From positions 545,154-609,153 of the forward strand of contig CAVPYB010000012.1 of NCBI GenBank assembly GCA_963709875.1: a DNA stretch of 64,000 nt, given 5' to 3'. The notes beneath the pieces were generated by a model, which was given only the letters and a program-made list of their open reading frames with translations, made no database searches and was not told the DNA's origin. This DNA comes from an uncultured Chloroflexia bacterium (GTDB taxonomy: Bacteria; Chloroflexota; Anaerolineae; Anaerolineales; UBA4823). The translations under genes were made by a program, and so were the position numbers. Below are positions 36,591 through 55,178 of this stretch, piece by piece (position 1 is the first letter of the stretch; every line of letters starts with the position of its first letter).

Positions 36591-38327
36591 GTGTCGAATA
36601 TAAATCTTCAATCCCTTGACTCTGCACTAGCTGAATATGCTCCAATCGGTCGCAGCGCCTTGCTCCCCGCGCTGTATGCCGCACAATCCATCTATGGCTA
36701 TCTGCCTGAGCCGGTAGCTGCCCGAGTGGGCCAGGTTCTGGGGGTTCCTCTGGCTGACGTATATGGTGTGATCGACTTCTACAGCATGTTCTACCGCCAG
36801 CCGGTGGGGGAGACACATATCCTGCTTTGCGGCGACCCGGCCTGCGCTATAGAAGGCTCAGATGTGATCATGCAAGACTTATGCCAGCACCTGGGTATTT
36901 CTAACCCAGGTGTCAGCCCGGACGGCAAGGTAAGCCTGGAACGGGCACCCTGCCTGGGGTTATGCGAGCACGCACCGGCGGCTTTGGTAGGAGAAACCCC
37001 TCTTGGTCAGATCGACCGCACACAGCCCGAGGCGATCATCCAGGGCACCGGCACTGCACCCTACGCCAGGGTCGGAGGCGATGCGCGCCTGCTGACAGCC
37101 AACTGTGATAAAGGACGTCCAACTTCGCTTGAGGAATACCTTGAGGGCAGCGGCTATTCCGGGCTGAAAAAAGCGCTCAGCCAGCCCCCCAAATCGGTGA
37201 TCGCCGAGGTGAAGGCTTCCGGCCTGGTCGGGCGCGGTGGGGCTGCCTTTCCCACCGGCGTGAAGTGGGAAGGCGCAGCCAATGCAGAGGGGCAGCCCAA
37301 GTACGTAGTCTGCAACGCCGACGAATCCGAGCCGGGCACGTTCAAAGACCGGGTGCTCATGGAAGGCGACCCGCACCGGTTGCTGGAGGGCCTGATCATC
37401 GCCGCCTACGCGGTCGGCGCCCACCAGGGCTATATCTACGTGCGCGGTGAATATACCTACGCCTATAAAGTTCTTGATTGGGCAGTCCAGGAAGCCCGGC
37501 AGGCAGGATTGCTGGGAGAAGACATCCTCGGCAGCGGCTTTGAGTTGCAGATCGAGCTGCGCCGCGGCGCCGGTGCCTATATCTGCGGAGAGGAGACGGC
37601 CCTGTTCGAGTCAATCGAAGGCAAGCGCGGCTTCCCGCGTGTCAAACCGCCCTTCCCTACCACCCACGGGTTGTTCTCAAAACCCACCGTGGTCAACAAT
37701 GTCGAGACTCTATGCAATATCCCCCTCATCATCGAAGAGGGTGCTGAAGCTTACCGCCAGCTTGGCACAGAACGATCCCCGGGCACCAAGCTGTTCTGCG
37801 TCTCCGGCGATATTGCCCGTCCCGGTGTCTATGAGGTGCCATTTGGCGCCAGCCTGCGCCATCTGCTGTTCGAGCTGGCAGGAGGCGTGCCTGGCGGGCG
37901 GGAGATGCAGGCGATCCTGTTCGGCGGTGCAGCCGGGACATTTGCCAATCCGGATCAGCTTGACGTGCGCCTGACTTTCGAGGACCTGCGCCAGGCCGGG
38001 CTGCTGCTAGGCTCCGGCGTGGTGATGGTGTTCGACGAGCGGCGCGATCTGCGTGATACGCTGAAACGGCTGGCGCGCTTCTTCGCCCACGAGTCGTGCG
38101 GCAAGTGCTACCCCTGCCAGTTGGGCACCCAGCGCCAGCACGAGATCCTGGAGCGCGTCGCAAACGGTAAGGCTCTCGCCGGGGATACCGAGCGGCTGAC
38201 CGATGTCGGCTGGACGATGACCGACGCGTCGCTGTGCGGACTGGGTCAGACGGCTGCCACCGCTGTGCTAAGCGCCATCAAATTGTGGCCTGAACTTTTC
38301 ATCGAAACACAACCCCAGGCGGAGTAG
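36591..38327 (+). CDS. Fused NuoE/NuoF-like NAD(H)-binding flavoprotein (FdsG/FdsB or HoxF type)
   Basis: GTG start with GGAGG RBS. NuoE-like 2Fe-2S part ([12 protein letters not shown]...CLGLCEHAP). NuoF motifs [13 protein letters not shown] and [12 protein letters not shown]. Intact. Confidence 0.85.
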
Positions 38328-38370
38328 CCACCTTTTCGAACTCTACCCGAAGGACACAGCTATCAACCTT

Positions 38371-39062
38371 ATGGATGAAATTACCCTCACCATCGACGGA
38401 CAGACCGGTCAAAGTCCCGCGCGGCATCACCATCCTGCAGGCTGCCCGGGAAGCTCGGCATCGATATCCCCACCATCTGCTACCACGAGGCCGACCACCG
38501 CCAACGCGCTGTGCCGCACCTGCGTGGTGGAGGTCGACAGGGCGCGCGTGCTGGCGGCTTCCTGCGTTGCGCAGGTAAGCGACGGCATGAAAGTGCTACA
38601 CCCGCTCCGAGCGCGTCGAGCGCAGCCGGCGCACCATCCTGGAGATGCTCGACATCGGCAGTCGATCTCTCCGAGGCGCCGGAGATCCAGGCGATGCTGG
38701 CCGAATACCCGGCCGACCCGGAGCGCTTCCCGGATGCCGAGCGCCGCGAGCCGCCGGTCATCGACGACAACCCGATGTACGTGCGCGATTATGCCAAGTG
38801 CGTGCTGTGCTGGCGCTGCGTGCAGGTCTGCGCCGAGGACGCCCAGTACACCTTCGCCATCAATTTCGCCGGGCGCGGCTTCGAGACCCAGATCGCCACC
38901 TTCTTCGACCAGCCCATGCCCGAGACCACCTGCGTGTTCTGCGGGCAGTGCGTGGGCGTCTGCCCCACCGGCGCGCTCAAGCCCAAGCGTGAATGGCTGT
39001 TCGAGCAGGGGCTGACGCCGGACGAGATCATGGGGGCGACCCGCAGCGAAGCGAAAAAGTAG
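38371..39062 (+). pseudogene. Formate dehydrogenase iron-sulfur (NuoG N-terminal-like) subunit, five +1 frameshifts in the first 300 nt
   Basis: Reconstructed as [54 protein letters not shown]...[36 protein letters not shown]...[11 protein letters not shown]...[16 protein letters not shown]. Confidence 0.8.
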
Positions 39063-39080
39063 GTAAGAAGGAGCGCCGGT

Positions 39081-52673: not shown

Positions 52674-52676
52674 GCC

Positions 52677-53752
52677 ATGGCGACGATCACAACTGAGCAT
52701 ATCGGTGAACAGCACGAATGGCTATCTGGCCGGCTCCAACCTGGAGCGGGTGCTGCGCGCCGGTCATTTCGCCGTCACCGGCGAGCTTGGCCCGCCGCAG
52801 AGCGCCGATGGCGACGTGATCCGCGAGAAAGCCGCCCTGCTGAAAGGCTACTGGTCGACGCGGTCAACATCACCGACAACCAGACCGCCATCGTGCGCAT
52901 GTCCAGCATCGGCGCCGGGGCCATCGTCGTCCAGGAAGGGCTGGAACCGGTCATCCAGATGACCTGCCGCGACCGCAACCGCCTGGCGATCCAGAGCGAC
53001 CTGCTGGGCGCCTACGCGCTGGGGATGCGCAACCTGCTCTGCCTGACCGGCGATCACCAGACCTTCGGCAACCACCCCAATTCGCAAGAATGTCTTCGAT
53101 ATCGACTCGATCCAGCTGGTCAAAATGGTGACGGACATGCGCGACGAGCGCATCTTCCAATGCGGCGATGCATTCAAGGGACAGGAGCCGCGCTTCTTCA
53201 TCGGCGCGGCCGCCGCGCCCTTCGCCGACCCGATCGATTTCCGACCCTATCGGCTGGCGAAAAAGGTCAAGGCCGGCGCCGAATTTCATCCAGACCCAGC
53301 TGGTCTACGACATACCAGCCTTCGCAGACTACATGGAGAAAGTGCGCGAGCTCGGGCTGCACGAGCAGACCTACATCCTGGCTGGTGTTGGTCCGCTGAA
53401 GAGTCCCGGCATGGCGCGCTATATGAAGAACAGCGTGCCCGGCATCCTGGTGCCCGACGAATTGATCGAGCGCATGGACGCCGCCGGCGCGCCCTGGGCC
53501 GGCAAGAGCAAGGATGAGCTGACCAAGGAAGATAAGAAAGCCCGCTCCACCGCCTGGAAGGAGGAGGGCATCCAGATCTGCATCGAGCTGATCCAGCAAC
53601 TGCGCAAGATCGAGGGCGTAGCCGGCGTGCATATCATGGCGATCGAGTGGGAAGAAGCGGTCAAACCGATCGTCGAAGGCGCCGGGCTGTACCCACGCCC
53701 GGTGGTTGCCGGCAGGCGGCGAAGCGCTGCCCATCATAGGAGGCGGTCATGA
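52677..53752 (+). pseudogene. metF: Methylenetetrahydrofolate reductase MetF, several frameshifts (3' end uncertain)
   Basis: NLERVLRAGHFAVTGELGPPQS, VDAVNITDNQTAIVRMSS, CRDRNRLAIQSDLLGA, LCLTGDHQ, QTQLVYD and VHIMAIEWEE appear in different frames. Confidence 0.8.
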
Positions 53753-53784
53753 GCGATAGCCCACAGCAGCGATAGCACAAGCCT

Positions 53785-55178
53785 ATGACCATCAACCCCG
53801 ACCTGGCCCAGCGCATCCAGGAGGAGCTGGGAGAGAACGTTTACCTGTGCTACCAGTGCGTCAAGTGCACCAGCGGCTGCCCGGTGGGCGAGTTCTTCGA
53901 CTGGCAGCCCAACCAGATCATGCGCGCCCTGCAGCTCGGGCAGGAAGATATCGCCCTGGAATCGCAGACCCCCTGGTTGTGCGCCTCCTGCCAGACCTGC
54001 ACCACGCGCTGCCCCCAGGGCCTGGATATCACCGCCATCATGGAATTCCTGACCCGCGAGGCGCTGGAGCGGGCATCAAACCCCAGGTCCCCGAGGTCAA
54101 GATCTTCAACGACGCCTTTCATGCGCGAGGTACGATCTGTGGGGCGCGCCTACGAGCTGGGCTGATGGCCGAGATGAAGCTGCGCAACCCGCGGACCTGT
54201 TCGAGCGACCTGGACCTGTGTCATCAAGATGCTGCGCAAGAACGAAGGTGCGCTTTCCTGCCCAGCACCGGCGCGCCCGCCGCGCAAGGTCAAACCCGTC
54301 CCCGGCGCGCCAACGCCGTGGCCTATTATCCCGGCTGCTCGCTGCACTCCACCGCCACCGAGTTCAACCACTCCGCCAAGGCAGTCTGCGAGGCGCTGGA
54401 TCTGGACCTGATCGAGCCGAAGGGCTGGGTGTGCTGCGGCAGCAGCGCCGCCCACCGCGCCGACCCGGAAGCCGCACTGCGCCTGCCGATGGAGAACCTG
54501 GCGCTGATCGAACAGAGCGGCTTCAACGAAGTGACCATGCCCTGCGCGGCCTGTTTCAACCGCCACAAGAGCCGCCCAGTACGAGATCCGCCACGATGAG
54601 CGACCACCGGCAGTGGGTAGACCAGGAGATCGACTACGACTACCAGGATGGGGTCCAGGTCAGCACCCTGGTGCCAGACGATCCTGCAAGCACGTCGGCT
54701 CGGAGCAGGTAGCCAGCCAAGGTGCAAAAACCGCTGAAAGGCCTGCGGGTGGTGTGCTATTACGGCTGCCTGCTGACCCGCCCGCCGGAGGTGACCGAGG
54801 CCGAGACACCCCGAGAATCCCACCGATATGGACGAGCTGATGGCGGCCCTGGGCGCCGAGGTGCTGGATTGGTCGTACAAGACCACCTGCTGCGGCGCTG
54901 CCCATTCGCTCACCCGCCCGGATATCGTGCTCAAGCTGAGCGGCAATCTGATCCAGCACGCCCGCGAGGCCGGCGCCGATGTGATCGCGGTGGCCTGCCC
55001 GCTGTGCCATACCAACCTGGACGCACGCCAGTTCCAGATGGAAGCTGGACGAGCCATGCCGGTGCTGTACTTCACCCAGTTGATGGCGCTGGCGCTGGGT
55101 CTGCCGGACAAAGCAGCCGCGCTGCAGAAGAACCTGGTCGACCCACGACCGCTTATGCGCAGCAAAGGGTTTATGTAA
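53785..55178 (+). pseudogene. hdrCB: HdrC/HdrB-like fusion (2x4Fe-4S plus two CCG domains), several frameshifts
   Basis: CYQCVKCTSGCP, CASCQTCTTRCP, YYPGCSLHSTA, WVCCGSSAAH, PCAACFNR, CYYGCLLTRPP, TTCCGAAHS and ACPLCHTNLD. Confidence 0.8.

Follow-up and report, generated by a model that had tools for sequence, protein, structure and literature searches.

The gene cluster described here raises two questions: whether a formate dehydrogenase (FDH) and a methylene-tetrahydrofolate (methylene-THF) reductase encoded next to each other form one electron-transferring machine or two, and whether genes as broken as most of these are in the assembly are functional in the organism. The cluster lies on the plus strand, at positions 36591-55178 of a 64,000-nucleotide stretch ("the window") from an uncultured Chloroflexia bacterium of the order Anaerolineales (assembly GCA_963709875.1, contig CAVPYB010000012.1; G000:C12:545154-609153 in our labels, where G000 is the window's own genome, other G numbers are genomes of relatives and L numbers are loci). 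The assembly comprises 5.25 Mb in 14 contigs at 88% completeness, and protein relatives of the window are overwhelmingly from Anaerolineae (Chloroflexota) metagenome-assembled genomes (MAGs). Taken as a whole, the region is, we believe with moderate confidence, best explained as two separate enzyme gene sets belonging to the Wood-Ljungdahl pathway's methyl branch, now side by side, which share that pathway and consist of functional genes carrying frameshifts from assembly errors.

The Hdr/MetVF block and the Wood-Ljungdahl pathway

The open reading frame (ORF) listing has the plus strand between 38.3 and 55.2 kb of the window split into many short frames. With the window copies frameshifted, the domain assignments for the long genes rest on intact orthologues in the reference locus L087 (G002:C89), which comes from a short-read MAG of the same genus as the window organism; there the whole 18-kb gene order is collinear with the window and all frames are uninterrupted. 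The L087 proteins were placed on the window by frameshift-aware protein-to-DNA alignment, which fixes the gene ends, and are 70-89% identical to the frame-corrected window proteins. Every gene named in the original prediction for this DNA was seen, in the order and on the strand proposed (Pfam on window pieces and L087, NCBIfam on L087). The proposed ends agree as well, 36591 being a GTG that aligns with the L087 start and 55178 the last base of the hdrCB stop codon, except that the conserved block goes one gene beyond, to a gene that we call orfX (55307-55855).

The larger gene set, hdrA2-mvhD-hdrL-mvhD(Sec)-(GNAT)-metV-metF-hdrCB-orfX, would encode a Moorella-type, Hdr-linked methylene-THF reductase. 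Its first gene, hdrA2 (42371-45627, nineteen frameshifts), encodes a two-module HdrA of about 1075 amino acids after correction (1071 in L087, corrected identity 84%); Pfam finds the FAD/NAD(P) and Fer4 domains twice in the L087 form, and the match to the solved HdrA chain 5odc_A comes in three stretches (E 5e-143). Next come the first mvhD copy (45664-46171, with a frameshift right after the start codon and two more possible near the 3' end; Pfam FlpD E 1e-40 in L087, identity 84%, PF02662 at G000:C12:590854-591222) and hdrL (46269-50964, start uncertain within 46269-46322, twenty-three frameshifts). The HdrL protein, of about 1570 amino acids (1578 in L087, identity 82%), begins with an N-terminal HdrA stretch, continues with a module for NAD(P)H of the NfnB/GltD kind and the remainder of HdrA, and ends in a second HdrA-like module. 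Pfam places Fer4_20, a full-length Pyr_redox_2 (E 4e-57) between the HdrA segments, and two FAD modules on the L087 form; against the Protein Data Bank (PDB), HdrA is matched in four stretches and NfnB-type chains at residues ~180-690, and the corrected window protein keeps four dinucleotide-binding motifs (GGGIAG, GAGPCG, GGGNVA and GGGAAG). HdrA modules with an inserted GltD/NfnB-like NAD(P)H module, and an mvhD next to the gene, are the features by which an HdrL is recognised. A paralogous HdrL, 51% identical and followed by MvhD, occupies an intact 1553-amino-acid frame with no frameshifts about 38 kb past the window end (G000:C12:647345-652048).

The second mvhD copy (50961-51407) overlaps the hdrL stop and has no frameshift; it contains an in-frame UGA at 51183-51185 and, with this TGA read through, matches FlpD at E 4e-45. 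The motif VAG*LEGDCHY has the stop at the same place in L087 and in some 50 further loci of Anaerolineae; the codon is therefore read here as one for selenocysteine (Sec), and the tRNA-SeC gene in the window's genome (G000:C2:485608-485703) supports this. The duplicated MvhD and the extra giant NAD(P)H-binding HdrL that had been proposed for this locus are thus both present by Pfam, PDB mapping and motifs. The genes that follow are metV (51989-52673, one frameshift; PF12225 E 6e-38 in L087 and at G000:C12:597476-597757; identity 87%), metF for the catalytic subunit of the reductase (52677-53752, three to five frameshifts; Pfam MTHFR E 3e-35 in L087, PF02219 in two window pieces; identity 86%; by sequence, no PDB match at 1e-10), and the fused hdrCB (53749-55178, eleven frameshifts), which overlaps the metF stop. 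Pfam assigns HdrCB a Fer4 dicluster domain and two CCG domains, both CCG motifs being kept in the corrected window protein, and the PDB matches place HdrC at residues 12-112 and HdrB at residues 190-470. Adjacent reading frames overlap or are almost contiguous at hdrL/mvhD2, mvhD2/GNAT, metV/metF (3 nt) and metF/hdrCB. The GNAT acetyltransferase (51397-51963, Acetyltransf_1 E 2.5e-13) appears accessory, being found at this position, besides the window, only in L083, L087, L088, L090 and L106. MetF (PF02219) and MetV (PF12225) are encoded together, and the same cluster holds an HdrA-type flavoprotein, a two-CCG HdrB, an HdrC with two 4Fe-4S clusters and MvhD. The parallel that had been drawn with the MetFV-HdrABC-MvhD enzyme of Moorella is borne out, all of its parts being found along with an added NAD(P)H module. 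That the subunits may form a complex is suggested by the gene order kept among relatives and by the overlapping frames.

Beyond the gene content, synteny, co-occurrence with acsB and freedom from decay signals that we observe, an electron path, substrates and a complex composition may be proposed from these domains. The NfnB/GltD-like insert of HdrL would take electrons from NAD(P)H, and the HdrA-type flavins would split them, one branch passing through HdrCB and MetV to MetF and methylene-THF and the other to an acceptor of low potential, for example ferredoxin; during oxidation the direction could be the opposite.

The link between this block and the Wood-Ljungdahl pathway is supported by the comparison of related loci and genomes. 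An HdrL fragment used as query retrieved 80 further Anaerolineae loci, of which 35 have the same order hdrA2-mvhD-hdrL-mvhD-metV-metF-hdrCB and most others are truncated at contig ends; in about 15 loci, genes for a response regulator and a histidine kinase, together with a second HdrL gene, precede metV. Where their positions were compared, in 16 related genomes, HdrL and the Hdr-type MetV share a contig and are 4.5-12 kb apart, and MetV, MetF and HdrCB come after the hdrA2-mvhD-hdrL-mvhD quartet in every related genome whose contig reaches far enough. Judged by their record names, the dozens of MAGs that contain the block come from groundwater, mud, sand and other habitats. The remaining genes of the pathway, the absence of which would have spoken against the original prediction, are present in the window's genome (cooS, acsB, acsC/D, fhs and folD). 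Orthologous HdrL was found in 21 of 61 related genomes; AcsB accompanies it in all 21 and is also present in 17 of the 40 genomes without this orthologue, relatives of this kind not being statistically independent. Three genomes, G035, G045 and G053, have the block on the acsB strand, 12-13 kb downstream of that gene and co-directional with the carbon monoxide dehydrogenase/acetyl-CoA synthase genes. The fullest case is G053, from another Anaerolineales family, with a 40-kb Wood-Ljungdahl supercluster (L177 and L178, G053:C4:104000-143999). It begins with fdhD, a nuoEF-type FDH, fhs on the opposite strand, cooS, acsB, acsD, acsC, RACo, acsE and malic enzyme, and continues with hdrA2, mvhD, hdrL, mvhD, a two-component pair, a second hdrL, mvhD, metV, metF and hdrCB.

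A different use of the same parts deserves consideration: HdrA2-MvhD-HdrL-MvhD may be a general module that splits electrons between NAD(P)H and ferredoxin, with a thiol/disulfide carrier as the substrate of HdrCB and with MetVF as one of several clients, or it may serve mainly the oxidative confurcation of methyl-THF. HdrB-type CCG domains normally reduce disulfides, which is family knowledge in favour of such a role; the window's genome also has six MvhD loci, a second HdrL and other methylene-THF reductase genes, and the two-component pair and second HdrL between quartet and metV in some 15 loci fit it too. The constancy with which MetV, MetF and HdrCB follow the quartet, the overlap of the metF and hdrCB coding regions, and the finding of HdrL only alongside AcsB among the genomes sampled argue the other way, and we regard a general module as unlikely.

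Formate dehydrogenase and its relation to the block

The smaller gene set lies immediately upstream, also on the plus strand. Its first gene (36591-38327, no frameshift, with an alternative ATG start at 36417) encodes the flavoprotein subunit, a NuoE-NuoF fusion with the Pfam domains 2Fe-2S_thioredx, Complex1_51K, SLBB and NADH_4Fe-4S that is 76% identical to its L087 orthologue. The beta chain of the NAD-dependent tungsten FDH1 of Methylorubrum extorquens (7e5z_B) aligns with residues 75-632 of the 636-amino-acid form (E 1.6e-99) and, among solved chains, is the one that spans the whole flavoprotein, closer matches being confined to the NuoF part. An iron-sulfur subunit resembling the NuoG N-terminus follows (38371-39062, five frameshifts; Fer2_4 and 4Fe-4S dicluster domains in window pieces and L087; corrected identity 79%), and then FdhA (39081-41260, thirteen frameshifts), a catalytic subunit of the cysteine type that binds molybdenum or tungsten bis-pyranopterin guanine dinucleotide. 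The L087 orthologue of FdhA passes the FdhA equivalog model TIGR01591 with 793.5 bits (cut-off 666), and its best solved relative is the alpha chain of the same FDH1 (7e5z_A, E 3e-195). The Cys-His active-site motif TRLCHAG, at window position 39530, and the N-terminal 4Fe-4S motif CxxCxxxC are present in both L087 and the corrected window sequence, which are 89% identical. By Pfam, the set has the NuoF-like FMN/NADH (FMN, flavin mononucleotide) and NuoE-like 2Fe-2S domains and the NuoG-N-like iron-sulfur chain of FDH1/FdsABG-type enzymes, and shows no ferredoxin domains at the C-terminus such as those of the bifurcating HydB type. The trio, which recurs by itself in hundreds of loci, would encode a cytoplasmic cysteine-type Mo/W formate dehydrogenase, whose electrons would travel between the metal site and NAD(H) along the iron-sulfur chain and by way of the FMN in the NuoF-like domain.

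The two sets meet in few genomes. The fdh genes adjoin hdrA2, with no intervening acs genes, only in the window, L087, L110 and L083 (= G025), which make up one small clade of the 60-row HdrA2 tree. Even within this clade, L083 has about 4 kb of unrelated, partly opposite-strand genes between fdhA and hdrA2; in other loci the genes upstream of hdrA2 are unrelated, and in G053 eight other genes separate it from fdh. In the window the gap holds an intact ORF of 212 amino acids (41496-42134, plus strand), an insertion relative to L087 and L110, L087 having no gene between fdhA and hdrA2; the public-read contigs of relatives barely span this stretch. The ORF had been labelled 2-oxoglutarate (2OG)-oxygenase-like. 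The ORF itself is there, possibly of an AlkB/2OG-oxygenase kind, but it has no Pfam or NCBIfam match, and the sole basis for the label is a language-model likeness to AlkB-type proteins (atlas feature score of 0.97 to AlkB-family clusters). About 90 nt upstream of hdrA2 is a sigma-70-like promoter site (42249-42277, plus strand; TTGACA-17-TACAAT with TG), which agrees with the consensus at 11 of 12 positions; this is a consensus match only, and such sites are no commoner in the region than in shuffles. A perfect hairpin also occurs in the spacer (41261-42370), at 41326-41347; an Rfam scan of the window gave no RNA family at gathering score.

No gene of the region contains an FdhB-type domain by Pfam. 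Given an FDH with its own NAD(H) module, an adjacency limited to one clade, and the ORF and promoter-like site in the gap, the arrangement reads as clustering of pathway genes rather than as a methanogen-style supercomplex. The parallel with the methanogen Fdh-MvhD-Hdr complexes that the original prediction had offered is accordingly not sustained, the FDH having a NuoE/NuoF module in place of an FdhB-type subunit and the adjacency being found in four loci of a single clade. Its statement that both themes are physically joined is right in that the two sets lie side by side; a single linked unit is not supported, with unrelated genes between fdhA and hdrA2 in the window and in L083. We infer that what FDH and the reductase block have in common is a pathway and, probably, the pool of NAD(H), rather than membership of one physical complex, and that in the window the fdh and hdr genes are probably separate transcription units.

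A single physical supercomplex, in which FDH would dock on HdrA2, MvhD or HdrL and formate would directly drive bifurcation to methylene-THF and ferredoxin, has several observations to recommend it. These are the direct adjacency, at about 200 nt, of fdhA and hdrA2 in L087 and L110, the NuoEF-type FDH that G053 and G045 have within the co-directional superclusters that also contain the Hdr block, and the MvhD after each HdrA-type gene, MvhD being the adaptor subunit in the methanogen complexes (PDB 7bkb matches); co-localisation and co-expression of FDH, HdrL and MvhD have been reported in Desulfurivibrio dismutans (PMC12142623). We nevertheless judge it improbable in view of the complete NAD(H) module and lack of an FdhB-type subunit, the restriction of direct adjacency to one small clade, the other genes that intervene in the window, L083 and G053, and the conservation of the FDH trio and the Hdr block each alone in many genomes. 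A further proposal, that the block is a distinct and larger class of methylene-THF reductase, with HdrL as a built-in Nfn-like NAD(P)H port and orfX as an unrecognised subunit, and that in the window's clade FDH docks on it so that formate drives bifurcation, strikes us as equally doubtful.

Frameshifts, orfX and the strength of the explanation

Some 79 single-base frameshifts (66 one-base surpluses and 13 one-base deficits) cut eight genes over 16.5 kb of the window (38410-54809). After correction of the frames there are no internal stops except the conserved Sec codon, whereas simulated neutral decay through 400-1600 substitutions leads one to expect 13-47. Measured against L087, the ratio of non-synonymous to synonymous changes (pN/pS) is 0.14-0.28 for genes with frameshifts and 0.20-0.31 for those without, and in the HdrA2 tree the branch leading to the window shows no lengthening. 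Pfam matches to cooS (4 pieces) and acsC/D (3 pieces), at G000:C10:269056-276344, and to folD (2 pieces), at G000:C4:91413-91908, are likewise split across frames, so that the breaks are not confined to the window. Contigs from public sequencing runs represent relatives at ~85-95% likeness and not the source population; they are one letter short near the predicted insertions at 39623-39625, 41160, 44466, 44746, 44803 and 45251-45258. Given the lack of internal stops, the unrelaxed selection and the intact genes in the MAG of the same genus, the frameshifts are likely to be errors of assembly or consensus rather than decay, and the genes are likely to be functional in the organism. As to how such errors might have arisen, homopolymer errors were considered and rejected, only 4 of 59 resolvable insertions lying in runs of identical bases. 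Wobble-site polymorphism with both alleles kept in the consensus is allowed by many sites; 19 insertions lie uniquely inside codons. GC content was considered too: it is 4-6 points higher in the genes with frameshifts than in the orthologous genes of L087, but orfX, which has no frameshift, is GC-rich as well.

Several points count against the explanation favoured here. The genome has three other methylene-THF reductase loci (G000:C10:383323-384670, C2:341847-343093 and C1:74824-75582), two of them with MetV domains, and most relatives have a fused MetV-MetF of about 500 amino acids 7-9 kb from acsB; the block is therefore not the sole candidate reductase. Its electron donors and acceptors are read from domains only. 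In L087 and L110, where fdhA and hdrA2 are so close, co-transcription is possible, and, a related type of FDH being part of the superclusters of G053 and G045 as well, FDH and Hdr may be functionally tied more closely than is proposed here. The frameshifts are unevenly spread, with none in nuoEF, mvhD2, GNAT, orfX or the paralogous 1553-amino-acid HdrL frame, and are mostly one-base surpluses outside homopolymers; among the public runs none was found with the organism's own reads, the best holding 5-7% of the words.

That the cluster is truly pseudogenised, its frameshifts being real mutations, is hardly credible: the density of frameshifts between intact flanking genes, their position mostly outside homopolymers, unlike usual long-read error, and public runs devoid of source-sample reads could be cited for it, but the indels come with no nonsense codon, large deletion or faster rate of change, pN/pS matches the low values of the intact neighbours, Wood-Ljungdahl genes on other contigs have the same kind of breaks, every gene is intact in the same-genus MAG, and 88% completeness despite only 14 contigs would fit marker genes broken by indel errors. 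The pseudogenisation against which the original prediction had guarded itself is thus contradicted by the low pN/pS, the absence of stops and the intact L087. The frameshifted genes of this MAG should consequently not be scored as pseudogenes in metabolic reconstruction.

The last gene of the block, orfX (55307-55855, plus strand, intact), encodes a conserved protein of 182 amino acids with four invariant cysteines (C152, C154, C174 and C177). It travels with the Hdr/MetVF block: in 25 loci it is the gene that follows hdrCB, and L133 and L152 have it ahead of hdrA2. It belongs to no Pfam family and its atlas features score below 0.85. An AF2 (AlphaFold2) model is of high quality (pLDDT, the predicted local distance difference test, 91); with it, Foldseek found nothing in the PDB at E <= 0.001, the best VIA-align Z was 4.9, and in the AlphaFold DB the only matches were members of its own family and weak SprT-like ones. 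The next gene (55931-57088, intact, 385 amino acids) encodes a protein in which a full FGE-sulfatase domain (E 2e-41) is joined to a weak TIR_2 match, whose E of 3e-6 is just at the gathering cut-off. Because orfX travels with the block, it is unlikely to form a module with this TIR/FGE-sulfatase gene.

Comparison with known systems

The methylene-THF reductase step sets how much energy the Wood-Ljungdahl pathway conserves, and for the Hdr-type enzyme of acetogens the electron donors and the second acceptor are still described as unsettled (PMC5736913, PMC9430772). The domains of the Anaerolineae variant suggest a concrete hypothesis, namely NAD(P)H entry through HdrL. The value of the present case lies in the intact L087 template for expression, the breadth of conservation, and orfX; the adjacency of FDH is in itself ordinary pathway clustering. 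The original prediction could match the combination to no characterised system, which is fair as regards biochemistry; the cluster type had, however, been described in Anaerolineae in 2017 (PMC5736913), and co-localisation of FDH, HdrL and MvhD with Wood-Ljungdahl genes is on record for D. dismutans (PMC12142623).

For the smaller gene set the closest counterpart is the tungsten, NAD-dependent FDH1 of M. extorquens AM1 (PDB 7e5z/7vw6). Both are of the cysteine type, the beta subunit is the same NuoE-NuoF fusion, and the alpha subunit consists of an N-terminal iron-sulfur part followed by the same catalytic part; in the window, however, alpha is split into two genes (~230 and ~720 amino acids), and the metal may be tungsten or molybdenum. 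In the Fdh-Hdr(-Fmd) supercomplex of Methanospirillum hungatei (PDB 7bkb), HdrA, HdrB, HdrC and FdhA all have relatives in the window, but there a methanogen F420-type FdhB docks through MvhD, whereas the partner of the window FDH is a NuoE/NuoF NAD(H) module.

HdrL was named in Desulfobacterium autotrophicum HRM2 (Strittmatter et al. 2009, PMC2702500). The layout is shared, with a large fusion of HdrA and glutamate-synthase type, an NAD(P)H site and then mvhD, and some of the D. autotrophicum loci adjoin fdh genes; there, however, HdrL is tied to dsr or fdh genes and to sulfate reduction, not to metVF-hdrCB. In D. dismutans AMeS2 (PMC12142623) fdhAB-hdrL-mvhD lies beside Wood-Ljungdahl genes, and an interplay of FDH and HdrL has been proposed. 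Both organisms have genes for a cytoplasmic FDH of the NAD(P)H type close to those for an HdrL-like protein and MvhD and to genes of the Wood-Ljungdahl pathway, but D. dismutans belongs to another phylum, its FdhAB is fused, its cluster has no metVF-hdrCB and the link proposed is to sulfur metabolism.

Close to the larger gene set are the hdrABC-mvhD-metVF clusters described by Sewell et al. (2017, PMC5736913) in the marine Anaerolineae DscP3, An-B22 and SM23_63, and interpreted there as a Moorella-type bifurcating methylene-THF reductase of a homoacetogenic pathway with formate as a likely donor. Bacterial class, cluster type and HdrC-HdrB fusion are the same. That paper called the cluster unique to marine members, whereas we find it in dozens of MAGs with record names that suggest varied habitats, and the parts of it drawn on here make no mention of an adjacent NAD-type FDH, the HdrL architecture or Sec-MvhD. 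Close to it too is the MetFV-HdrABC-MvhD of Moorella thermoacetica (Moth_1191-1196; also in Sporomusa ovata), as cited in PMC5736913 and PMC9430772, with which the window shares, in one cluster linked to the Wood-Ljungdahl pathway, MetF, MetV, an HdrA-type flavoprotein, a two-CCG HdrB, HdrC and MvhD. The window differs from Moorella in its fused HdrC-HdrB, its tandem two-module HdrA, an extra HdrL of ~1570 amino acids with an NfnB/GltD-like module, two MvhD, one with selenocysteine, and an attached orfX; the block described here appears to be a common variant of this known Moorella-type reductase.

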